Shown here in pieces: positions 3,190-49,015 of a stretch of 63,428 nt of DNA; positions within the stretch are counted from its first letter, which is position 1, and every line of letters starts with the position of its first letter. The stretch is from Escherichia coli. Its GTDB lineage: Bacteria > Pseudomonadota > Gammaproteobacteria > Enterobacterales > Enterobacteriaceae. The DNA lies in assembly GCF_024223415.1 (NCBI RefSeq), contig NZ_CP100504.1; one strand, written 5' to 3'. The position numbers and the translations under genes are program-made. The notes under the pieces are model-generated. The model was not told the origin of the DNA and did not search any database. It saw only the letters and a program-made list of their open reading frames with translations.

Positions 3190-4422
3190 TCATGTTGCCG
3201 CCAGCGGGCGACAGATCGCCCGCAGGGCGACGGCGCTGCACAGCGGAAACAGCGCCAGCAGAAGCCAGGGATAAACCGCCTGCGGCGACGGAATGAGCGC
3301 CTGGTCAAGTAAATGACCGAGCAGTAAATTCCCGGCTAACACCGCGCACCCTCCTGCGGTGGCGAGCGCTCCGTAGTGGGCGCCCAGCGTCGACTCCTCG
3401 GCGAACAGCGGGATCAGATCCTTGGCTGCGGGCACTAACAGCATCTGGCCGAGGGTGAGCAGCGTGACAAAACCAGCCGCCGGCATTAACCGCAGCCAAC
3501 TTTCGGCGGGTGGGGCGGCGGCGAATAACGCCACGCTGGCAAAGGAAGCCGACAGCAGCAGAAAGCCCACCGGCAGGATGCGCACGGCGCCCATTCGCCG
3601 GGCGAAGCGGGCGAGAGGGAGCTGGAGGGTGATAATCAACAGCGAGGCCAGCATAAAGAGCGGCGCCAGATCCTGCTCGCGGCCGCCGGAACGTTGGATC
3701 TCCACCGGCAGAGCGAGGTAGAGTTGGTTGTAGCTCAACAGCCATGAGCTGTAGGCGAGAATAAACGCGACAAAGCGCGGCTGGCGCAAAGGCGTCCACC
3801 ATGGGACTCGTCTGCGCGTTGTTGTCGTGTGCCCGTCGGCGGGCAGACCGAAAAAGAGCACCGCCAGCGCCAGAAGAAATATTCCCGCGCCGGCGAGGGC
3901 GATATGTCGAAAGCCGATCCCGCTCAGCACGCCTCCGGCCACCGGGCCGATCACCGCTCCCAGTTCACCGCATACCGCAAACAGCGCAAACCACTCGGCG
4001 CGGCTGCGTTTCCCGTTGGCCTGGCTGTGGGTACCGGCCCGCGCCAGCAGGGCCTCTATCGACGGGGAGAACAGGGCGCCGCCGACGCCGGTCAGGCAGG
4101 CGCCAAGGATAATGGCCCACAGCGACGCCCCGCACGCCAGCAGGAGAAAACCGGCGACGCGAACGACGCAGCCGGCGAGAATGATCGCCTTAGCGCCATA
4201 GCGGTCGGCCAGCGTCCCGCCGAGGATAAACATCCCCTGTTGGGAGAAGGTACGCAGCCCGAGGATCAGGCCGATAAGTCCGCCTGAGAGCAGCATGTCG
4301 TCGCGCAGGAAGAGGGCGAGGAAAGGTACGACCGCGTAAAAGCCAATATTAAAAACGAACTGGCTTCCCAGTAACACCGGAGGCCAGAGGGTTGCCGCAG
4401 GGCGCAGGGAGAAAAGAGGCAT
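3190..4422 (-). CDS. eitD: MFS transporter, EitD-like
   Basis: Multi-pass membrane protein; likely start is the internal Met (MPLFSL) 12 nt after the upstream ATPase stop; last gene of a four-gene operon in eitABCD order. Confidence 0.55.
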   Translation of the reverse strand: MPLFSLRPAATLWPPVLLGSQFVFNIGFYAVVPFLALFLRDDMLLSGGLIGLILGLRTFSQQGMFILGGTLADRYGAKAIILAGCVVRVAGFLLLACGASLWAIILGACLTGVGGALFSPSIEALLARAGTHSQANGKRSRAEWFALFAVCGELGAVIGPVAGGVLSGIGFRHIALAGAGIFLLALAVLFFGLPADGHTTTTRRRVPWWTPLRQPRFVAFILAYSSWLLSYNQLYLALPVEIQRSGGREQDLAPLFMLASLLIITLQLPLARFARRMGAVRILPVGFLLLSASFASVALFAAAPPAESWLRLMPAAGFVTLLTLGQMLLVPAAKDLIPLFAEESTLGAHYGALATAGGCAVLAGNLLLGHLLDQALIPSPQAVYPWLLLALFPLCSAVALRAICRPLAAT

Positions 4423-27249: not shown

Positions 27250-27964
27250 TACGGCAATAATATTCGGCGGCCTGTTTTTTTCCTGCAGCGTGATGGCCGC
27301 AAACGGTACGCTGGCCCCCACTGTGGTGCCAATGGTGAACGGTGGTCAGGCCAGTATTGCCATCAGCAATACCAGCCCGAATCTGTTTACCGTTCCCGGT
27401 GACCGGATTATCGCCGTGAACAGTCTGGATGGTGCCCTGACCAATAATGAGCAGACCTCCTCCGGCGGTGTGGTGGTGGCCACCGTCAACAAAAAGCCCT
27501 TTACGTTCATTCTGGAAACAGAACGTGGTCTGAATCTTTCCATTCAGGCCGTTCCCCGTGAAGGCGCGGGGCGTACCATTCAGCTGGTCAGTGACCTGCG
27601 CGGAACCGGAGAAGAAGCCGGTGCGTGGGAAACGTCCACGCCTTACGAATCCCTGCTTGTGACCATCAGCCAGGCTGTCCGTGGCGGAAAATTACCTGCA
27701 GGCTGGTATCAGGTTCCTGTGACAAAGGAAACCCTGCAGGCCCCGGCGGGGCTGTCTTCAGTGGCAGATGCCGTATGGACGGGGAATCACCTGAAGATGG
27801 TCCGCTTTGTCGTGGAAAATAAAACGCTGTCTGCCCTGAATATCCGGGAAAGTGATTTCTGGCAGCCGGGAACCCGTGCCGTGATGTTCAGCCAGCCTGC
27901 CAGCCAGTTACTGGCAGGTGCGCGCATGGATGTGTATGTCATCCGTGACGGGGAGGGCAACTGA
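27236..27964 (+). CDS. traK: T4SS secretin-like protein TraK
   Basis: 242 aa with signal peptide; matches TraK. Confidence 0.9.
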
Positions 27965-29391
27965 TGGCCAGTATCAACACCATTGTGAAACGCAAGCAGT
28001 ACTTGTGGCTGGGGATTGTGGTTGTCGGTGCAGCCTCCGCGATTGGTGGGGCACTGTATCTGTCTGATGTGGACATGTCCGGTAACGGTGAGGCGGTGGC
28101 TGAACAGGAGCCTGTACCGGATATGACCGGTGTGGTGGATACGACCTTTGATGACAAGGTGCGTCAGCATGCCACCACAGAGATGCAGGTGACGGCAGCG
28201 CAGATGCAGAAGCAGTATGAGGAAATCCGTCGTGAGCTGGATGTCCTGAACAAACAGCGCGGTGATGACCAGCGTCGTATTGAAAAGCTGGGACAGGATA
28301 ATGCTGCCCTGGCAGAGCAGGTAAAAGCCCTGGGTGCAAATCCCGTCACCGCGACCGGTGAGCCAGTACCGCAGACGCCAGCCTCACCGCCCGGCCCGGA
28401 AGGCGAACCACAGCCAGGAAACACACCCGTATCTTTCCCGCCGCAGGGCAGCGTTGCTGTTCCACCGCCGACGGCGTTTTATCCCGGGAATGGTGTCACG
28501 CCACCACCACAGGTGACGTACCAGTCTGTGCCGGTGCCTAACCGGATACAGCGTAAGGTGTTTACCCGTAATGAGGGAAAACAGGGACCATCACTGCCGT
28601 ACATTCCGTCAGGAAGTTTTGCGAAAGCCATGCTGATTGAAGGGGCGGATGCCAATGCCTCTGTCACCGGTAATGAATCCACGGTGCCGATGCAGCTGCG
28701 TATCACCGGCCTGGTGGAAATGCCGAACAGCAAGACGTATGACGCAACGGGATGTTTTGTGGGTCTGGAAGCCTGGGGGGATGTGTCCAGTGAGCGTGCC
28801 ATTGTACGCACCCGCAATATCAGCTGCCTGAAGGACGGCAAAACTATTGATATGCCGATTAAGGGGCATGTCAGCTTCCGGGGTAAAAACGGTATCAAGG
28901 GCGAAGTGGTGATGCGTAACGGCAAAATCCTCGGCTGGGCATGGGGCGCGGGATTTGTTGACGGTATCGGTCAGGGAATGGAGCGTGCCTCCCAGCCGGC
29001 TGTCGGGCTGGGTGCCACCGCTGCTTACGGGGCCGGCGATGTCCTTAAAATGGGTATCGGTGGCGGCGCATCGAAAGCCGCACAGACGCTCAGTGACTAC
29101 TACATCAAACGTGCCGAACAGTATCACCCGGTGATACCGATTGGTGCGGGCAACGAAGTGACCGTGGTGTTCCAGGACGGCTTCCAGCTGAAAACCGTGG
29201 AAGAGATGGCGCTGGAACGCACGCAGAGCAGAGCTGAAGAAGACAATCCGGAAAGTCCGGTTCCTGTTCCGCCATCGGCTGAAAGTCATCTTAACGGCTT
29301 TAATACTGACCAGATGCTGAAGCAGCTGGGCAACCTGAATCCGCAGCAGTTTATGTCCGGCAGCCAGGGAGGGGGCAACGATGGCAAATAA
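27964..29391 (+). CDS. traB: T4SS core protein TraB
   Basis: 475 aa with an N-terminal TM segment and a Pro-rich linker; matches TraB. Confidence 0.9.
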   Translation: MASINTIVKRKQYLWLGIVVVGAASAIGGALYLSDVDMSGNGEAVAEQEPVPDMTGVVDTTFDDKVRQHATTEMQVTAAQMQKQYEEIRRELDVLNKQRGDDQRRIEKLGQDNAALAEQVKALGANPVTATGEPVPQTPASPPGPEGEPQPGNTPVSFPPQGSVAVPPPTAFYPGNGVTPPPQVTYQSVPVPNRIQRKVFTRNEGKQGPSLPYIPSGSFAKAMLIEGADANASVTGNESTVPMQLRITGLVEMPNSKTYDATGCFVGLEAWGDVSSERAIVRTRNISCLKDGKTIDMPIKGHVSFRGKNGIKGEVVMRNGKILGWAWGAGFVDGIGQGMERASQPAVGLGATAAYGAGDVLKMGIGGGASKAAQTLSDYYIKRAEQYHPVIPIGAGNEVTVVFQDGFQLKTVEEMALERTQSRAEEDNPESPVPVPPSAESHLNGFNTDQMLKQLGNLNPQQFMSGSQGGGNDGK

Positions 29392-29965: not shown

Positions 29966-30272
29966 TATTAATGTTATTACAGCCCGCGTTGTGCCGGATA
30001 AAAACGTATCAGATGATTTTATGCATGCTGTTCTCAGTAACTGCACCACAAAAATAGTTCTTCCTGCTCCGAAGGTGTTCAGTTCTGAATCATTGCCGCA
30101 CAAATTTAATATGGCTGCTGTCGGTGTGATGAAGAAGGGAATGTCGATGAGCTTATTTTCTTCTCCGGGAAATACAGTGGTCTCCGGACATCCCTGTGCA
30201 GGGAAAACAAATCTGACAGCAGAGTTAATTTCTGCTGTTGTGGGGAGTAATAAAAAAGGAGAAGGGCAATGA
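29952..30272 (+). CDS. TrbD/TrbG-like small transfer protein
   Basis: 106-aa ORF from MNMRNINVITARVV (RBS ggag) filling the traP-traV gap; cannot tell whether it corresponds to trbD, trbG or a fusion. Confidence 0.5.
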   Translation: MNMRNINVITARVVPDKNVSDDFMHAVLSNCTTKIVLPAPKVFSSESLPHKFNMAAVGVMKKGMSMSLFSSPGNTVVSGHPCAGKTNLTAELISAVVGSNKKGEGQ

Positions 30273-30784
30273 AACAGATTTCTTTATTTATTCCTCTGCT
30301 GGGAACCTTATTACTTTCCGGCTGCGCAGGAACAAATACGGAATTTGAGTGTAACGCCACCACATCCGATACCTGTATGACGATGGAGCAGGCCAATGAG
30401 AAGGCCAAAAAACTGGAGCAGTCCTCAGAAGCAAAGCCGGTTGCGGCATCACTGCCGCGCCTGGCTGAAGGGAACTTCCGGACAATGCCGGTGCAGACCA
30501 TCACCGCGACCACTCCGTCCGGCAGCAGACCTGCGGTGACGACACTTCCGGAGCAGAAACTGCTGACACCTCGCCCGCTGTTTACTGCAGCCCGGGAAGT
30601 GAAAACGGTTGTCCCGGTCAGTTCAGTTGCGCCGGTAACGCCTCCCCGTCCGTTAAGAACGGGTGAGCAGACGGCAGCATTATGGATAGCACCATATATT
30701 GATAATCAGGATGTTTATCATCAGCCATCCAGTGTGTTTTTTGTTATTAAACCGTCTGCGTGGGGAAAACCACGTATTAATTAA
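30269..30784 (+). CDS. traV: outer-membrane lipoprotein TraV
   Basis: 171 aa with lipobox LLLSGCAG; matches TraV. Confidence 0.9.
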   Translation: MKQISLFIPLLGTLLLSGCAGTNTEFECNATTSDTCMTMEQANEKAKKLEQSSEAKPVAASLPRLAEGNFRTMPVQTITATTPSGSRPAVTTLPEQKLLTPRPLFTAAREVKTVVPVSSVAPVTPPRPLRTGEQTAALWIAPYIDNQDVYHQPSSVFFVIKPSAWGKPRIN

Positions 30785-30918
30785 CTGGCCCTGAAGTTGT
30801 ATATCAGCCGGCAATGTCGGCGGGCTTTCTGTATTCAAAATCTGCCTGTAAAACGAGTGCCCTGTGCGTGAAAAGGGATGGGCGGTAGCGTGTCAGAACA
30901 TGTCGGGAGGAATATTCC

Positions 30919-31140
30919 GTGAGTGATGAAGCCGATGAAGCATATTCAGTGACAGAACAACTGACCATGACAGGAATAAACCGGATACGCCAGAAAATAA
31001 ATGCTCATGGTATTCCTGTTTATCTCTGTGAAGCATGCGGAAATCCTATTCCGGAAGCCCGGCGGAAAATATTTCCCGGTGTGACGTTGTGCGTTGAATG
31101 TCAGGCGTATCAGGAAAGGCAGAGGAAACACTATGCATAA
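30919..31140 (+). CDS. traR: TraR (DksA/TraR C4 zinc-finger family)
   Basis: 73 aa with CEACGNPIPEARRKIFPGVTLCVECQ zinc-finger motif. Confidence 0.9.
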   Translation: MSDEADEAYSVTEQLTMTGINRIRQKINAHGIPVYLCEACGNPIPEARRKIFPGVTLCVECQAYQERQRKHYA

Positions 31141-31609
31141 ATCAGAAAATGAAAAAATAGATTTTATTATGGATGAGCATGAGCGGATATTCAGAAAACA
31201 GGGTTCTTTGTGTATGGCACTGGGTAAGGGCTTTTTAGTTATAGCTATTCTTTGTGGTGTTGCCACATTCTGTGTTTCTGGCCTGTATCTGAAATCCCTG
31301 TGCCTGTCTGTTGCCTGCTGTTGTGGGGTATTCAGTCGTATTTTTAATTATTACAGCGTACCGGAGGAATCACGCATGGTACTCAGTCGTCAGGAATTAC
31401 TCCGGCTTATGCTTCTGACTGAAGACGTACCGGATGTGAGACAGGAACTGCTTAACCGTTTGTTGTCCGGTAAAAAACTGACTGGTCGGGATGAACAGGA
31501 TATCCGGCGTCTCTGGCAGGAGAAAGTGGATGCAATGCAGGAGTCTGCCACCCGTCAGCGTGAACAGGATACTATTCGGAAGTTTACTGAAGGGATATTC
31601 AGTGATTAA
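31133..31609 (+). CDS. hypothetical membrane protein (cargo between traR and traC)
   Basis: ~158 aa from MHKSENEK (RBS gaggaaa), overlapping the traR stop; one hydrophobic segment; visibly AT-rich. Confidence 0.5.
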   Translation: MHKSENEKIDFIMDEHERIFRKQGSLCMALGKGFLVIAILCGVATFCVSGLYLKSLCLSVACCCGVFSRIFNYYSVPEESRMVLSRQELLRLMLLTEDVPDVRQELLNRLLSGKKLTGRDEQDIRRLWQEKVDAMQESATRQREQDTIRKFTEGIFSD

Positions 31610-31632
31610 TATACAAGCGGAGATAATAAAGA

Positions 31633-31848
31633 ATGCATACCTTTATTTTTCTTGTGCTGATAAAAAATATTAACGGTGGCGGAAGCTGGAATATTACACC
31701 CATGCCAAATACGGACGTATGCGTGCAGGTTCTTCGGACAATCGAGTCACACGGAGGCAGGGGATTTGGAAATACAGGGGAATGTATTGAAGTTAAAACA
31801 AATAAACCTTTGAACAACGTGATGGATACACTGAATGGGGGGCAATGA
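31633..31848 (+). CDS. small hypothetical protein
   Basis: 71-aa ORF with RBS ggag; hydrophobic N-terminus; AT-rich. Confidence 0.4.
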   Translation: MHTFIFLVLIKNINGGGSWNITPMPNTDVCVQVLRTIESHGGRGFGNTGECIEVKTNKPLNNVMDTLNGGQ

Positions 31849-31875
31849 GTGCTTACTGCTTCAAAGGAAAATGAA

Positions 31876-32238
31876 ATGAAGTCGATATATTTAGAATCTG
31901 TTCTGGCTTTTATATTTGTTGGCGTTATGGCTATGTTGATATGTGGTCTTTTTTACAATGACTACCTTGAGCAACAACCTGCAACACCAGAACAACTGAG
32001 AGAGATTACACAGGATATCCCCTGTGCAGCAGAAGCATTTAAGGAAGCTATTAAGTCTGACACATCTGATTATCAGCCTGAACCTTTAAGTCTTGGTAAG
32101 GCAAAAAAGCTTGCATCAGCGTGTAGAGAAAGAAACGAAATGGCAGAGGTGAAACGGGTAAGAGAAAATGAGCGCAATAAGATTCGCGAAAAACAAATTC
32201 AGGCATTAAATGATGCTCATTCAGTAAAGGAACGTTAA
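31876..32238 (+). CDS. hypothetical membrane-anchored protein
   Basis: ~120 aa from MKSIYLESVLAFIFVGVMAMLICG (RBS aaagga); charged C-terminal region; AT-rich. Confidence 0.45.
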   Translation: MKSIYLESVLAFIFVGVMAMLICGLFYNDYLEQQPATPEQLREITQDIPCAAEAFKEAIKSDTSDYQPEPLSLGKAKKLASACRERNEMAEVKRVRENERNKIREKQIQALNDAHSVKER

Positions 32239-32363
32239 TCCTGGTTTCCTGTTAAAAGCCTCCATCTCTTATTTGTGCTGTGGTTTCAGGAATGGCACTG
32301 CGTGATATATCCACGGCCACAGACTGATATTTTCCTTTTTTAAACGCACTAAGGAATACGCAT

Positions 32364-34994
32364 ATGAGTAATAACCCACTTGAGGCCGTCACTCAGGCGG
32401 TTAACTCCCTCGTCACAGCACTGAAACTGCCTGACGAATCAGCAAAGGCCAATGAAGTGCTGGGCGAAATGAGCTTCCCGCAGTTCAGCCGTCTGCTGCC
32501 GTACCGTGATTACAACCAGGAATCCGGTCTGTTCATGAATGACACCACGATGGGCTTTATGCTGGAAGCCATTCCCATCAATGGGGCGAATAAGTCCATT
32601 GTGGAGGCACTCGATCACATGCTGCGCACCAAACTGCCGCGCGATATTCCGTTGTGTATCAATCTGATGTCCAGTCAGCTGGTTGGTGACAGGATTGAAT
32701 ACGGGCTGCGTGAGTTCTCCTGGTCAGGTGAACAGGCTGAACGGTTTAACGCCATTACCCGGGCCTATTATATGAAAGCGGCAGCGACACAGTTTCCGCT
32801 GCCGGAGGGGATGAATCTGGCCCTGACCCTGCGCCATTACCGGGTGTTTATCTCGTACTGTTCTCCTTCGAAGAAAAAAAGCCGGGCCGACATTCTGGAA
32901 ATGGAAAACCTGGTGAAAATCATCCGGGCGTCGTTACAGGGGGCCAGTATCACCACACAGACGGTGGATGCACAGGCCTTTATCGATATTGTCGGGGAGA
33001 TGATTAACCATAACCCGGACTCCCTGTACCCGAAAAAACGTCAGCTGGACCCGTATTCTGATCTGAATTATCAGTGTGTGGAGGACAGTTTTGATCTGAA
33101 AGTCCGGGCTGATTACCTGACGCTGGGCCTGCGTGAGAACGGCAGGAACAGCACGGCCCGCATCCTGAATTTCCATCTGGCCCGTAACCCGGAAATCGCC
33201 TTCCTGTGGAACATGGCCGACAACTACAGCAACCTGCTGAACCCGGAACTGTCCATCTCCTGTCCGTTCATCCTGACGCTGACTCTGGTGGTGGAAGACC
33301 AGGTGAAAACCCACAGCGAAGCCAACCTGAAGTACATGGACCTGGAGAAAAAGTCGAAGACCTCCTATGCCAAATGGTTTCCGTCCGTGGAGAAAGAGGC
33401 GAAGGAGTGGGGGGAACTGCGTCAGCGGCTGGGCTCCGGTCAGTCCTCCGTGGTGTCCTACTTCCTCAACATCACAGCATTCTGCAAGGACAATAATGAA
33501 ACGGCGCTGAAAGTGGAGCAGGACATCCTGAACAGCTTTCGTAAAAACGGTTTTGAGCTGATTTCACCGCGCTTTAACCACATGCGCAATTTCCTGACCT
33601 GCCTGCCCTTTATGGCCGGGAAAGGGCTGTTTAAACAGCTGAAAGAGGCCGGAGTGGTTCAGCGCGCAGAGAGCTTTAATGTGGCCAACCTGATGCCGTT
33701 AGTGGCGGATAACCCCCTGACACCGGCAGGTCTGCTGGCACCCACCTACCGTAACCAGCTGGCGTTTATCGATATTTTCTTCCGGGGGATGAATAACACC
33801 AATTACAACATGGCGGTCTGTGGCACCTCCGGGGCCGGTAAAACCGGGCTGATACAGCCACTTATCCGCAGCGTGCTGGACTCCGGGGGCTTTGCCGTGG
33901 TGTTCGACATGGGGGATGGCTACAAGTCCCTGTGTGAGAACATGGGGGGCGTATATCTGGACGGTGAAACCCTGCGCTTTAACCCGTTTGCGAACATCAC
34001 CGATATTGACCAGTCAGCGGAGCGTGTCCGCGACCAGCTGTCGGTGATGGCCAGCCCCAACGGTAACCTGGATGAAGTGCATGAAGGTCTGCTGCTGCAG
34101 GCGGTCAGGGCATCATGGCTGGCCAAAGAGAACAGGGCTCGTATTGATGACGTGGTGGATTTCCTGAAAAACGCCAGTGACAGCGAGCAGTATGCCGGGT
34201 CACCGACTATCCGCAGCCGTCTGGACGAAATGATTGTGCTGCTTGACCAGTACACTGCCAACGGCACTTACGGCCAGTATTTTAACTCTGATGAGCCGTC
34301 CCTGCGGGATGATGCAAAAATGGTGGTGCTGGAGCTGGGCGGACTGGAAGACCGTCCGTCACTGCTGGTTGCGGTGATGTTCTCCCTGATTATCTACATC
34401 GAGAACAGGATGTACCGCACGCCGCGTAACCTCAAGAAACTGAACGTTATTGATGAAGGCTGGCGTCTGCTGGACTTCAAAAATCACAAGGTCGGTGAAT
34501 TTATTGAGAAAGGCTACCGTACGGCCCGCCGTCATACCGGTGCCTATATCACCATCACACAGAACATCGTCGACTTTGACTCTGACAAGGCCTCCAGTGC
34601 TGCCCGCGCGGCATGGGGTAACTCCTCCTACAAAATTATCCTCAGACAGAGTGCGAAGGAGTTCGCGAAATACAACCAGCTGTATCCGGACCAGTTCCAG
34701 CCACTGCAGCGCGACATGATTGGTAAGTTTGGTGCGGCCAAAGACCAGTGGTTCAGTTCCTTCCTGCTGCAGGTGGAAAACCATTCCTCCTGGCACCGCC
34801 TGTTTGTGGACCCGTTAAGCCGCGCCATGTACAGCTCTGACGGCCCGGATTTTGAGTTTGTGCAGCAGAAACGTAAAGAGGGGCTGAGTATTCATGAGGC
34901 GGTGTGGCAGCTGGCGTGGAAGAAGTCAGGGCCGGAGATGGCTTCGCTGGAAGCCTGGCTGGAAGAACATGAGAAATACAGGAGTGTTGCATGA
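32364..34994 (+). CDS. traC: T4SS ATPase TraC (VirB4-like)
   Basis: 876 aa with Walker A GTSGAGKT; matches TraC. Confidence 0.95.
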   Translation: MSNNPLEAVTQAVNSLVTALKLPDESAKANEVLGEMSFPQFSRLLPYRDYNQESGLFMNDTTMGFMLEAIPINGANKSIVEALDHMLRTKLPRDIPLCINLMSSQLVGDRIEYGLREFSWSGEQAERFNAITRAYYMKAAATQFPLPEGMNLALTLRHYRVFISYCSPSKKKSRADILEMENLVKIIRASLQGASITTQTVDAQAFIDIVGEMINHNPDSLYPKKRQLDPYSDLNYQCVEDSFDLKVRADYLTLGLRENGRNSTARILNFHLARNPEIAFLWNMADNYSNLLNPELSISCPFILTLTLVVEDQVKTHSEANLKYMDLEKKSKTSYAKWFPSVEKEAKEWGELRQRLGSGQSSVVSYFLNITAFCKDNNETALKVEQDILNSFRKNGFELISPRFNHMRNFLTCLPFMAGKGLFKQLKEAGVVQRAESFNVANLMPLVADNPLTPAGLLAPTYRNQLAFIDIFFRGMNNTNYNMAVCGTSGAGKTGLIQPLIRSVLDSGGFAVVFDMGDGYKSLCENMGGVYLDGETLRFNPFANITDIDQSAERVRDQLSVMASPNGNLDEVHEGLLLQAVRASWLAKENRARIDDVVDFLKNASDSEQYAGSPTIRSRLDEMIVLLDQYTANGTYGQYFNSDEPSLRDDAKMVVLELGGLEDRPSLLVAVMFSLIIYIENRMYRTPRNLKKLNVIDEGWRLLDFKNHKVGEFIEKGYRTARRHTGAYITITQNIVDFDSDKASSAARAAWGNSSYKIILRQSAKEFAKYNQLYPDQFQPLQRDMIGKFGAAKDQWFSSFLLQVENHSSWHRLFVDPLSRAMYSSDGPDFEFVQQKRKEGLSIHEAVWQLAWKKSGPEMASLEAWLEEHEKYRSVA

Positions 34995-37021: not shown

Positions 37022-37330
37022 ATGGAAAAGAAATTAAGCAGTAAATACATTCATATGTATATGAGTATATCCCGAGTGTTCATTCGTTTGACAGGCAATG
37101 TATTAAAACTGTTTCCTTTTGCTATGGTGATATTCCCTGTGGTGTGGTTTTATCTTTGCCCTGAACATATTATCTCAGACATTGTTAACGACTGGCAGGA
37201 TGCAGATACACTGGAAAAAATACTGCTTGTCAAACTGTATCTGAAGACGGTTCTTATTCTGACAGTGGTAAGCGTTGTTGTCTTGTATCTTTCGTCAGAT
37301 AAGTTTATGCCTGTTAAACGCAGGAAATGA
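37022..37330 (+). CDS. small hypothetical membrane protein (cargo between traU and trbC)
   Basis: 102 aa with two hydrophobic segments; visibly AT-rich compared with flanking tra genes. Confidence 0.45.
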   Translation: MEKKLSSKYIHMYMSISRVFIRLTGNVLKLFPFAMVIFPVVWFYLCPEHIISDIVNDWQDADTLEKILLVKLYLKTVLILTVVSVVVLYLSSDKFMPVKRRK

Positions 37331-37392
37331 GTCTGGTGGTTCTCATAAATATAACTGTGTGTGCATGTGTACAATATAAGTAAAGGTGCGTT

Positions 37393-37914
37393 ATGGGATT
37401 TTTCTCGTTTTTACGAAAGATAAGTAATAAAGAAAAAGGGGTGGTTATCTATGAGAAGCAGTGGTTCTCACTGCTGGAAAAGGTGAGTGCTTTTGATGAG
37501 GTCAGACAATGGGCTGAAAGTAATGGCGGAGCATATTATCCTATGCTGGAGTGTCGTCGGCTTACAGACAGTGAAAATGTCAGGAAATCAGAGGATATAC
37601 TGAACCGACTGGAGTTTATTGACAGAAGATTTCGGGAATTCATCAGCATTATGTCTGAACATATTAATAATGATAAAACTAAATCCATGTGGGAGAGGGA
37701 ATTGTCTGAATATCCACCGGAAAAAATATACCAGGTCCAGAGAGAGGGAGAACATCTGTCATTAAAAAATTATGGTGATGATATTACTCTGAACAGAGAT
37801 ACCGCCGTGGCTACGGTGCAGATTACTGTCAGCAGAAAATGCATTACTCAGGAAGAAATGGATGAATTATATGCATTGTCTGAGAGACTGAAAGAAAAGT
37901 GCGCCGGTAATTAA
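37393..37914 (+). CDS. hypothetical protein (cargo between traU and trbC)
   Basis: 173-aa soluble-looking ORF with RBS aaaggtg; no recognisable motif; AT-rich. Confidence 0.5.
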   Translation: MGFFSFLRKISNKEKGVVIYEKQWFSLLEKVSAFDEVRQWAESNGGAYYPMLECRRLTDSENVRKSEDILNRLEFIDRRFREFISIMSEHINNDKTKSMWERELSEYPPEKIYQVQREGEHLSLKNYGDDITLNRDTAVATVQITVSRKCITQEEMDELYALSERLKEKCAGN

Positions 37915-38626: not shown

Positions 38627-38947
38627 GTGTCCGCGATGAACGTGCATGGATTTCGCACATATGCGTCCTGTCAGGGGCATGGCTTCCCTGTTACGAAACT
38701 GCCGCCTTATATCGCCTTTTCCTGTCCGGTAAAAATGGCTGCCCTTCTGGAGCAGCGACTGCGGCAGGATGCTGAATCAGCAATACCACGTCTGACATGG
38801 GGATGGTCGGTGAAGGGGACTTTTAACAGTGATTTTCAGCTTTGCTTCCGGCTTCAGCCTGAAAGCCCTCATCACTGGTATCACCGGTACTGTCGCCGCT
38901 CACTGCGTGCAGACTTCAGGACGCTGGTCCGCTTACTGAATCCGTAA
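38627..38947 (+). CDS. hypothetical Cys/His/Trp-rich protein
   Basis: 106-aa ORF (GTG at 38627 or ATG at 38636) between trbC and traN; function unknown. Confidence 0.4.
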   Translation: MSAMNVHGFRTYASCQGHGFPVTKLPPYIAFSCPVKMAALLEQRLRQDAESAIPRLTWGWSVKGTFNSDFQLCFRLQPESPHHWYHRYCRRSLRADFRTLVRLLNP

Positions 38948-38971
38948 ATCTGTTCCCGTAAGGAGGCATTG

Positions 38972-39394
38972 ATGGCGCTGACAAAGAAGCAGCGGGAAAA
39001 ACTGCGTATGAAATTCGGCGGTCGTTGTGCGTACTGCGGCTGTGAACTGCCGGAAAAAGGCTGGCATGCCGACCATGTTCAGGCGGTGCTCCGCAAGTCA
39101 GAGCAGTGCATGAAGGCTGCAGAAAAGCGCATTTTCAGGCTGAAATCCACCGGTGATGTTTTCAGACCGGAGGCCGACTGTCCGGAAAACCTCGTCCCGG
39201 CCTGTGCGCCGTGCAACCTGCTGAAAACAACATATTCGCTGGAGATGTTCAGAACGCAGGTGTCCCTGCAGGTTGAACGGGGGCGAAGAAGCAGCGTGAA
39301 TTTCAGGACCGCAGAACGGTTCGGGCTGATTCAGGTGGTGAACAAACCAGTCGTGTTCTGGTTTGAGCAATATCAGAGGGAGAGTGAGGTATGA
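38972..39394 (+). CDS. HNH endonuclease
   Basis: 140 aa with CAYCGC...WHADHV...PACAPCN (HNH fold with paired Cys motifs); RBS aggagg. Confidence 0.75.
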   Translation: MALTKKQREKLRMKFGGRCAYCGCELPEKGWHADHVQAVLRKSEQCMKAAEKRIFRLKSTGDVFRPEADCPENLVPACAPCNLLKTTYSLEMFRTQVSLQVERGRRSSVNFRTAERFGLIQVVNKPVVFWFEQYQRESEV

Positions 39395-41264: not shown

Positions 41265-41513
41265 ATGATGAAGGTCATATTCACGTCGAACCGTTTTATT
41301 GATTTTCTTATCCGGCTTTTGATTACAGCGATTGTCATTTCCCCGGTAATTATCTGGTCGTGGGATACGGTAAAAGAAACCACGGCAGACGGGATGCCTG
41401 CCGCTGCTTTCGTTATCCTTTACTCCGGTGTGCTCCTGTTTATTCTGTATTTTTGTTTTTCTGCCCTGACCTGCAGAAAACCGATGAAAGAAAAAATGAT
41501 GAAAGGAATGAAG
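41265..41513 (+). CDS. trbE: TrbE (small membrane protein), frame runs into traF without a stop
   Basis: MMKVIFTSNRFIDFLIRLLITAIVISPVIIW... two TM segments; RBS ggggga; no stop codon before the TraF start in the same frame. Confidence 0.6.
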
Positions 41514-42257
41514 ATGAATAAAGCATTACTGCCACTGTTACTCTGCTGCTTTATTTTTCCGGCGTCAGGGAAAGATGCAGGCTGGCAGTGGTATAACGAG
41601 AAAATAAATCCGAAGGAAAAAGAAAATAAACCTGTACCTGCAGCCCCCCGTCAGGAGCCGGATATTATGCAGAAACTGGCCGCGCTGCAGACGGCAACAA
41701 AGCGGGCGCTGTACGAAGCCATTCTGTATCCCGGCGTGGATAATTTTGTGAAATATTTCCGGCTGCAGAATTACTGGACTCAGCAGGCCGGGCTTTTCAC
41801 CATGAGTGCTAAAAAAGCTATGCTGGCACATCCCGAACTGGACTATAACCTGCAGTACAGCCATTACAACGGCACGGTCCGGAACCAGCTGGCGGCAGAC
41901 CAGGCGCAGCAGCGACAGGCCATTGCGAAACTGGCTGAACACTACGGCATCATGTTTTTTTACCGGGGGCAGGACCCCATCGACGGGCAACTGGCGCAGG
42001 TCATTAATGGCTTCCGGGATACCTATGGTCTGAGTGTTATTCCCGTTTCCGTGGATGGCGTGATTAATCCGCTGTTGCCGGATTCCCGGACTGACCAGGG
42101 GCAGGCGCAGCGCCTCGGCGTGAAATATTTCCCGGCCATGATGCTGGTAGACCCGAAACAGGGCAGTGTTCGCCCGTTATCATACGGCTTTATTTCGCAG
42201 GATGACCTGGCAAAACAATTCCTGAACGTTTCTGAAGACTTTAAACCGAATTTTTAA
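41514..42257 (+). CDS. traF: pilus assembly protein TraF (thioredoxin-like fold)
   Basis: 247 aa from MNKALLPLLLCCFIFPASG (signal peptide) with RBS aaagga upstream; matches TraF. Confidence 0.85.
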   Translation: MNKALLPLLLCCFIFPASGKDAGWQWYNEKINPKEKENKPVPAAPRQEPDIMQKLAALQTATKRALYEAILYPGVDNFVKYFRLQNYWTQQAGLFTMSAKKAMLAHPELDYNLQYSHYNGTVRNQLAADQAQQRQAIAKLAEHYGIMFFYRGQDPIDGQLAQVINGFRDTYGLSVIPVSVDGVINPLLPDSRTDQGQAQRLGVKYFPAMMLVDPKQGSVRPLSYGFISQDDLAKQFLNVSEDFKPNF

Positions 42258-48515: not shown

Positions 48516-48535
48516 TATTGTATGGGGAGATGATA

Positions 48536-49015
48536 ATGAGATGTTTAACCCATATTGCTCTGGTAACGGTGATACAGTTTATCGCCTGTTATCTGGCTGG
48601 TTGGGGGAATGCCGAAACAATTTTTATGCTGTTCTTCATAGTACTATGGCAGGGACTGTTTATATGGTTGTTCTCTCAAATACGAAAAAAACGGAATGTG
48701 TCGGATGAGTTTAAGTTTAGTAAAGGCGTTTGGTATATAACGATGCCAGTATCTTCCTTACTCTCTCCATTATTAAGCCTGATGGTTTTTATCATTGGTA
48801 CACTATACGAATTAAGGCGAGTTAGTGGTTGTGTAAGTGTAAGAGAATGGATGCAATCTCAGGTAAATGAACAAACTAATGAAGATTTGCATCTGGATTT
48901 TGATAATATGGATTTTCATCGTACTAATCCTGCAACAGGGTTACCTATGTCAGGTATTGGTGTGGATATCGGTGGTAATTCATATGGTTATAGTTCAAAA
49001 CGATATGATGAGTGA
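48536..49015 (+). CDS. traS: entry exclusion protein TraS
   Basis: ~159-aa hydrophobic inner-membrane protein between traG and traT; AT-rich as is typical for traS. Confidence 0.75.
   Translation: MRCLTHIALVTVIQFIACYLAGWGNAETIFMLFFIVLWQGLFIWLFSQIRKKRNVSDEFKFSKGVWYITMPVSSLLSPLLSLMVFIIGTLYELRRVSGCVSVREWMQSQVNEQTNEDLHLDFDNMDFHRTNPATGLPMSGIGVDIGGNSYGYSSKRYDE

Follow-up and report, generated by a model that had tools for sequence, protein, structure and literature searches.

The window analysed here, a stretch of 63,428 nucleotides (nt) from Escherichia coli (assembly GCF_024223415.1, contig NZ_CP100504.1), contained an F-like transfer (tra) operon with mating-pair formation genes of the F type (MPF_F). 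Between traR and traC it carried three small open reading frames (ORFs), here called ORF1, ORF2 and ORF3, so that the gene order on the plus strand was traB (27964-29391), traP, trbD, traV (30269-30784), traR, ORF1-3 and traC. The traR gene (30919-31140) encoded a DksA-like protein of 73 amino acids (aa), which was 97-100% identical to the annotated TraR of the compared plasmid loci L001, L003, L010, L011, L012 and L014. Its stop codon overlapped the ATG of ORF1 in the string ATGCATAA. ORF1 (31133-31609) encoded a predicted inner-membrane protein of the YfhA/YafA family (158 aa), ORF2 (31633-31848) a predicted small, soluble alpha/beta protein (71 aa) that would correspond to yfiB of plasmid R100, and ORF3 (31876-32238) a putative bitopic membrane protein, YfiC (120 aa). 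The genes were separated by gaps of 23 nt (ORF1-ORF2) and 27 nt (ORF2-ORF3). A spacer of 125 nt (32239-32363), which holds the ribosome-binding site of traC, led to traC itself (32364-34994), which encodes a VirB4-type ATPase of 876 aa and bounds the slot downstream.

Several observations indicated that the three ORFs are real genes. The ORF lister opened ORF1 and ORF3 at upstream TTG/GTG codons (31094 and 31849); the ATG starts adopted here are in frame with these. A Shine-Dalgarno sequence preceded each gene (GAGG, 7 nt 5' of the ATG of ORF1; GGAG, 10 nt 5' of ORF2; AGGA, 7 nt 5' of ORF3), and the same genes were called by the Prokaryotic Genome Annotation Pipeline in the 99.3%-identical plasmid p4 of Klebsiella pneumoniae Kp1 (L001: 1734-2210, 2290-2505 and 2533-2895). 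Their coding status was further backed by the ratio of nonsynonymous to synonymous substitution rates of ORF2 (dN/dS, Nei-Gojobori estimates throughout; 0.13-0.25) and by frames that stayed open at 23-46% identity in ORF1 and at 39% in ORF3. The initial annotation of the window had proposed three ORFs with ribosome-binding sites at these positions, more AT-rich than their flanks, and was right on both counts. The GC content was 0.39-0.49 over 30950-32300 and 0.52-0.60 on both flanks (300-nt windows). At third codon positions (GC3) it was 0.42 in ORF1, 0.42 in ORF2 and 0.29 in ORF3, compared with 0.50-0.71 in traK, traB, traV, traC, trbI, traW, traU, traN, traH, traG, traD and traI, though traR (0.38), trbD (0.38), the ORF at the traS position (0.33) and two ORFs at 37022-37914 (0.40-0.41) were comparably AT-rich. 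These exceptions aside, the named tra genes spanned 0.47-0.71 in all. The ORF3-traC spacer was 98.5-99.5% conserved among plasmids bearing the three genes, and no Rfam family matched at the locus, spacer included. We rejected the spacer as a remnant of the ORF with four transmembrane (TM) segments found in Salmonella and Klebsiella slots, to which it had no similarity, and ORF1-3 as paralogues of other ORFs in the window, none of which resembled them.

By sequence and gene order, ORF1-3 are R100-type genes that have long been annotated but never characterised: yfhA/yfiA, probably yfiB, and yfiC. The database names obtained were YfhA (AFDB) and YafA (a phmmer match, and AFDB) for ORF1, and YfiC protein for the 99%-identical UniRef cluster of ORF3. 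The name yfiB for ORF2 probably applies, judging from gene order; the sources checked do not give it. The slot of NR1/R100 held four ORFs, all hypothetical: one of 137 aa, 97.7% identical to residues 1-130 of ORF1; a paralogue of 157 aa, 68% identical to ORF1; and orthologues of ORF2 (94%) and ORF3 (78%), in the same order between traR and traC. The orthology of ORF2 and ORF3 to the R100 genes was thus supported by both sequence and position in the traR/traV-traC slot, although the window's ORF3 belonged to another allele group than that of NR1, with a 5-residue insertion. In R100, YfhA follows traR and has no counterpart in F, and the tra region comprises 40 ORFs compared with 37 in F (2009 paper, PMC2762410). 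The genes themselves are thus already known: they have stood in the databases as hypothetical genes for more than two decades. Literature searches returned no functional work on yfhA, yfiA, yfiB, yfiC or the traR-traC interval.

The module was common and plasmid-borne. With megablast, positions 30900-32400 matched 3,548 PLSDB records, of which 1,148 covered at least 80%, so that more than 1,100 plasmids hold near-identical genes; these were always annotated as hypothetical, with ORF1 labelled yfiA in some records. Among 5,426 complete E. coli genomes, 890 had a match and 577 had at least 80% of the module, and all but two of the 1,192 matching places were on plasmids (1,190). Homologues of ORF2 and ORF3 occurred in approximately 3,500-3,600 PLSDB records, including about 2,200-2,300 Klebsiella plasmid records; some 97% of the total had been classed as conjugative. 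Every ORF2/ORF3 locus that was opened was of the MPF_F type and had the genes in the traV/traR-traC slot. The three Klebsiella loci among these were of the IncFII(K) type and had no traR; here ORF2 and ORF3 lay among 5-6 other small membrane-protein genes between traV and traC. The Klebsiella slot also held two paralogous ORFs (L008: 2687-2977 and 3604-4008; L009: 2669-2977 and 3219-3623), which have in common a domain with cysteines (HW.NDC.LLE.NI...N.L.C) that follows their TM segments, and a 4-TM ORF just before traC.

The content of the slot ranged from no genes in F, through an ORF1-family gene with a 4-TM ORF (Salmonella p1), three genes (the window) and four (R100/NR1), to 5-6 differing small membrane-protein ORFs in Klebsiella IncFII(K) plasmids, which agrees with the earlier description of a variable slot in F-like tra operons. 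In about two thirds of the matching PLSDB plasmids the alignment covered only traR and the first ~110 nt of ORF1. Both F (L016) and pMRSN346355_61.1 (L003) were without all three ORFs. Their 160-nt traR-traC spacers (L016 ~1575-1741; L003 3234-3400) matched the initial ~165 nt of ORF1, with the ATGCATAA overlap retained; the ORF1 remnant carried a 1-nt frameshift and was then joined directly to the ribosome-binding site of traC. This 5' remnant carries no annotation in the classical F record. Intermediate states were also found: in pWI2 a diverged ORF1 5' end was fused to the last ~190 nt of ORF3, and in L014 ORF1 and ORF2 were kept and ORF3 was reduced to its 3' end. Because the F and pMRSN346355_61.1 spacers are ORF1 remnants and pWI2 and L014 show partial deletions, the 'empty' slot is a deletion scar. 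Variation of the slot mostly reflects deletion, together with recombination between ORF1 alleles, and classical F itself is a deletion derivative that lost all three genes and keeps an ORF1 pseudogene stub.

Two further rearrangements were seen at ORF1. The window has one full-length copy, whereas in NR1 a truncated copy of the yfhA type precedes a full one of the yfiA type (L010 542-1421). The first copy ends in ...RRLWQE-TQRKHYA and a stop codon, in which QRKHYA and the stop are the C-terminus of TraR; ATGCATAA then recurs, followed by the second allele. The tandem yfhA-yfiA pair thus arose by unequal crossover. The window differed from NR1, in turn, by a deletion of 56 bp after ORF1, which lies between imperfect direct repeats (AAGTT[T/A]ACTGAAGGGA) and left the hybrid direct repeat AAGTTTACTGAAGGGA (31580-31595, plus strand). 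It changed the last four residues of ORF1 from NKSE to IFSD and shortened the ORF1-ORF2 spacer from 79 to 23 nt. No record in PLSDB or among the 5,426 E. coli genomes had this deletion, the best matches all being split there.

Between the E. coli and Klebsiella F-like lineages, ORF2 was 63-66% identical, TraC 62-67%, TraB 69%, TraV 49-54% and ORF3 39%. The dN/dS of ORF2 was close to that of traV (0.15-0.24), and ORF2 was conserved over its full length at a synonymous divergence (dS) of ~1; the ratios of ORF1 (0.36-0.78) and ORF3 (0.70-0.79) were higher. These values indicate that ORF2 co-diverges with the backbone, under a constraint equal in strength to that on the core Tra proteins. The Klebsiella slot genes likewise had a low GC3 (0.37-0.48, compared with 0.62-0.71). 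As it is kept in the Klebsiella slot too, low GC3 is a lasting trait of these accessory genes and does not point to a recent acquisition.

ORF1 was predicted to consist of an N-terminal cytoplasmic helix, a hypervariable hairpin of two TM segments (~residues 25-80) and a conserved cytoplasmic C-terminal domain of three helices with the motif RLLSGKKLTGRDExDIRRLW. The AlphaFold model (mean predicted local distance difference test score, pLDDT, 83.8) had helices at residues 2-47, 51-74, 86-98, 100-111 and 118-156. Homologues were 38-67% identical to ORF1 in the N-terminus and 9-34% in the hairpin. In the C-terminal domain, which was conserved, with intact frames, down to 23% overall identity, the range was 32-95%. 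We dropped the whole-gene dN/dS of ORF1 as evidence for diversifying selection, since the divergence is confined to the membrane hairpin and relaxed constraint fits it equally well. Homology to the YfhA/YafA family was full-length (phmmer E-values 1e-94 to 4e-34, one match being named 'protein YafA') and extended to the shared architecture of N-terminal helix, two-TM hairpin and C-terminal RLLSGKxLTGRDE motif in alignments, hydropathy profiles and AlphaFold models. The top matches in AFDB were YfhA (94% identity) and YafA (27-36%, TM-score 0.72-0.77), and Foldseek against AFDB50 returned the protein's own family plus SLATT-like matches at noise level only. A profile search of 1.84 billion representative sequences gave only 112 relatives, many of them fragments and none with an annotated function.

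This family extended well beyond F-like plasmids, where tblastn found full-length homologues at 27-39% identity. The YafA proteins of IncI1 and IncK plasmids (R64, pCol1B9 and pESBL, where it is named 'Hp2') were 33-39% identical to ORF1 over 96-97% of the query and shared its architecture and C-terminal motif. In contrast to ORF1, they are encoded outside the transfer genes, directly downstream of a gene for a ProQ/FinO-domain protein (fopA/yafB) and adjoining repA/repZ; they have no traR partner and a longer C-terminal tail. In the IncI2 plasmid R721 the homologue adjoined hicAB. Two distant relatives were found in Rep3/IncX-like plasmids (L018 5179-7446; L022 1894-3914) at the head of a virB-like operon, in the order NusG-like gene, ORF of 74-88 aa, YafA-family gene, virB1 (SLT), virB3, virB4. 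The small ORF was rejected as TraR-like since it contains no cysteines; by eye only, it resembles a ribbon-helix-helix protein. A tblastn search of PLSDB with the IncX-like homologue P0250 gave no match. One further distant relative, on a large contig, had TraG_N, Hcp and an integrase nearby. Three others, at 23-32% identity, lay immediately after traR in divergent F-like operons, the two genes overlapping by 14 or 8 nt or lying 13 nt apart. As such distant homologues still follow traR, the traR-ORF1 pairing is ancient. The ORF1 family as a whole accompanies the conjugation genes of several unrelated secretion-system types.

These results run counter to the proposal in the initial annotation that the three ORFs are horizontally acquired cargo inserted between traR and traC: the F spacer is an ORF1 remnant, ORF2 co-diverges with TraC and TraB, the linkage of traR and ORF1 persists at 23-32% identity, and the low GC3 recurs in Klebsiella. 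Of the features of a recently acquired island, only the atypical composition was present; the empty sites were deletion scars, and no mobility-type repeats, flanking repeats, insertion-sequence ends or integrase were found around the slot. ORF1-3 thus appear to be ancestral accessory parts of F-like tra operons, and not a recent cargo insertion.

The products had also been described as small membrane-associated proteins, which held for ORF1 (two TM segments) and ORF3 (one) but not for ORF2. ORF2 had no segment of TM grade (maximum 19-residue Kyte-Doolittle score, 0.92), and its AlphaFold model (pLDDT 76.9) was a soluble beta-beta-alpha-beta-alpha fold in which the hydrophobic N-terminus forms a beta-strand. 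It was the most conserved gene of the slot, with conserved cysteines C30 and C51. ORF2 contains two homopolymer runs, A6 (31662-31667) and G6 (31837-31842), and many database copies (e.g., L002 2259-2504) differed by single-base changes in these runs, which may be sequencing errors or real length variation. In such variants the N-terminus was replaced (pMyJU781, A5), the C-terminus was extended into the ORF3 leader, or double shifts compensated each other. ORF3 had one N-terminal TM helix (~residues 5-27), conserved cysteines C50 and C83, a basic C-terminal helix and the conserved motif QQPATPEQL...TPCAAEAF. Because acidic residues follow the TM helix and the cysteines are paired, an orientation with the N-terminus inside and the C-terminus outside is predicted, which would place the extramembrane domain in the periplasm. 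The absence of recognisable motifs noted earlier was confirmed, as searches of Pfam, NCBIfam, PADLOC and PHROG with single sequences and alignments gave nothing significant. Sequence-profile searches of the PDB with the three proteins gave no match either.

ORF1-3 are almost certainly co-expressed with the tra genes in this plasmid, as had been suggested. This rests on three points: ORF1 overlaps the stop codon of traR; a promoter and terminator scan of 30700-32500 found no sigma-70-like promoter or convincing terminator; and the slot ORFs of an IncFII(K) plasmid match their neighbours in expression. In the RNA-seq data of that plasmid, pBIC1a, the five hypothetical genes between traV and traC had values of 7-14, compared with 11 for traC and 22 for traV (PMC6286996). 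On these grounds co-transcription in the window is probable.

Unlike core F-type mating-pair formation genes, ORF1-3 are not present in all transfer-proficient F-like plasmids, F and pMRSN346355_61.1 being without them. About two thirds of E. coli F-like plasmids lacked the module, and plasmids without ORF1-3, F included, were typed as conjugative. F transfers well without these genes. In IncI1, YafA was non-essential for both transfer and maintenance by transposon sequencing of pESBL (PMC4288162), and the paper that named FopA calls the function of yafA unknown.

Taken together, we think it somewhat probable that ORF1-3 form an old, non-essential, donor-side accessory module of F-like transfer operons. 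The three genes would be transcribed as part of the long tra operon, with ORF1 translationally coupled to traR via the ATGCATAA overlap, and their products would be made in transfer-proficient donors alongside the pilus-assembly proteins. ORF1 would set its conserved cytoplasmic N-terminal helix and C-terminal domain at the inner membrane, leaving the hairpin free to vary; ORF2 would be a constrained small soluble partner; and ORF3 would place a fast-evolving, variable helical domain probably in the periplasm. The proteins may then modulate the donor envelope or the transfer apparatus, as other small dispensable Tra/Trb proteins do, and would not be structural parts of the secretion machine. 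The closest precedent is the set of small non-essential F proteins TraP, TrbD, TrbE and TrbI, which are likewise small, variably present and encoded in the pilus-assembly part of tra, and which are mostly inner-membrane proteins dispensable for transfer; trbD is AT-rich like ORF1-3 (GC3 0.38). In contrast to these, ORF1-3 are absent from F, and the ORF1 family reaches beyond F-type systems.

Several observations weigh against an accessory module of this kind. No experiment or homology assigns a function to any of the three proteins, and family and fold searches were either empty or generic. The frequent loss of the genes and the ORF2 frameshift variants in databases indicate a module that is easily dispensed with. 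The ORF1 family also occurs outside transfer operons, by fopA/repZ in IncI1 and by hicAB in R721, so a role tied to one secretion-system type is unlikely. The persistence of low GC3 in both lineages is not accounted for by such a module. Finally, the fast evolution of ORF1 and ORF3 (dN/dS reaching 0.78-0.79) is also compatible with a specificity determinant under diversifying selection, or with decay.

The first of these two possibilities would make the ORFs cargo with a conflict function (exclusion, membrane-toxin immunity, or anti-phage or anti-defence activity), with the ORF1 hairpin and the ORF3 domain as specificity determinants. We regard this as unlikely. In some allele pairs the ORF1 hairpin was only 9-34% identical beside C-terminal domains that were 88-95% identical, and dN/dS was 0.66-0.79 for ORF1 and ORF3. 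Such hairpin variability is, however, expected of a pure membrane anchor under relaxed constraint, and the conserved parts are predicted to be cytoplasmic. R100 stacks two ORF1 alleles in tandem, as immunity genes often are. ORF2, for its part, evolves under strong purifying selection and diverges in step with the backbone. Entry-exclusion proteins of the TraS type resemble the slot products in being small inner-membrane proteins of AT-rich, allelically diverse tra-operon genes, and the AT-richness is shared with the ORF at the traS position of the window. In F-like plasmids traS lies between traG and traT. ORF1-3, by contrast, lie between traR and traC and had no similarity to the traS-position ORF (48518-49015), which the window already has in addition to traT. 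The ORF1 family, moreover, spans plasmids with unrelated transfer systems, and IncI1 and IncX plasmids have their own exclusion genes. Genes for establishment or anti-defence would be poorly placed in the slot, which sits in the last-transferred part of the plasmid and reaches the recipient late.

Two independent resemblances to defence effectors were seen, both very faint. The SLATT and two-TM effectors of cyclic-oligonucleotide-based anti-phage signalling systems and of retron Ec48 share with ORF1 an N-terminal helix, a two-TM hairpin and a helical cytoplasmic region. The scores were at noise level: the NCBIfam retron Ec48 2TM match had an E-value of 0.8, and the AFDB match 'SMODS and SLOG-associating 2TM effector' an E-value of 0.77 with a TM-score of 0.44. 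No sensor or nucleotide-synthase partner gene lay near ORF1, and no PADLOC defence profile matched any of the three proteins at E-values up to 1. The ideas of exclusion and anti-defence, raised as possibilities in the initial annotation, thus have no positive support.

The neighbourhoods of the ORF1 family suggest another role, in which ORF1 would be a membrane-tethered adaptor that captures a host or plasmid regulatory factor and is linked to TraR, a NusG-like protein or FopA, while ORF2 and ORF3 would act separately, as accessories specific to F-type systems. In the window the ORF1 start and the traR stop overlap, and among homologues of 23-32% identity such overlaps recur; IncX-like plasmids have a NusG-like gene and a small ORF before the ORF1-family gene, where the virB operon begins, and the IncI1 copy lies immediately behind fopA, which encodes a FinO-domain protein. 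Across differing secretion-system and relaxase types it is the cytoplasmic N- and C-terminal parts that are most conserved, which points to a partner common to the hosts. On the other hand, TraR does not depend on ORF1, since F has lost ORF1 and retains traR, and the R721 copy adjoins hicAB. Adjacency to three unrelated regulators may merely reflect placement in plasmid regulatory regions, and no known binding-domain fold or motif was found. We consider the adaptor doubtful, slightly more so than a conflict function.

A broader version of the same idea seems to us no more probable than the adaptor itself. ORF1 would then represent an unrecognised class of conjugation-associated factor, membrane-tethered with a conserved cytoplasmic domain, independent of secretion type (IncF, IncI1/K, IncI2 and IncX-like) and coupled to the regulators TraR, NusG-like and FopA. 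It might control a process of the donor host or act as a SLATT-like two-TM effector, with YfiB and YfiC as an F-type-specific conserved pair.

That the module is decaying ballast, once useful, now neutral and persisting through its location in an essential operon, is highly improbable: the independent deletions in F, pWI2 and L014, the private 56-bp deletion at the 3' end of ORF1 in the window, the homopolymer frameshift variants of ORF2 in databases and the high dN/dS of ORF1 and ORF3 would all fit, but ORF2 has a dN/dS of 0.13-0.25 with full-length conservation at dS ~1, the C-terminal domain of ORF1 is conserved down to 23% overall identity with frames intact, and the intact module occurs in 577 of the 5,426 E. 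coli genomes and in roughly 2,300 plasmids from Klebsiella.

A second AT-rich variable slot of the window lay between traU and trbC and held two ORFs with no NCBIfam family (37022-37330, 102 aa, GC3 0.41; 37393-37914, 173 aa, GC3 0.40); at this place Kp1 p4, the closest relative, has approximately 630 bp of unrelated, unannotated sequence. Between trbC and traN were an ORF for a hypothetical protein of 106 aa (38627-38947) and one of 141 aa (38969-39394), which a relative's annotation gives an HNH endonuclease signature and which had a weak match, below the cut-off, to a retron-associated HNH model (E-value 2.4e-4). At 41265-42257, a 4-nt deletion of one CTGA unit (CCCTGACTGACC to CCCTGACC) after ~41465, relative to the closest plasmid, shifts the frame of trbE. 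As a result TrbE (residues 2-76) reads into TraF (residues 83-330) as one ORF of 330 aa; the traF start codon and ribosome-binding site remain. The AT-rich ORF at the traS position between traG and traT (48518-49015; GC3 0.33, 165 aa) matched no NCBIfam family and fits a divergent entry-exclusion allele.

As a result of a genome scan the finding is ordinary, the genes being near-identical to hundreds of deposited sequences. Antibiotic resistance in E. coli and Klebsiella is nevertheless carried chiefly by IncF plasmids, and few bacterial operons have been studied as thoroughly as their tra operon. The model plasmid F has lost conserved genes of the traR/traV-traC slot that about one third of E. 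coli F-like plasmids and most IncFII(K) plasmids of Klebsiella possess, and for this reason these genes have remained uncharacterised. The status of F as a deletion derivative, together with the constraint on ORF2, the cross-plasmid family of ORF1 and its linkage to regulators, turns this annotation gap into three testable genes.

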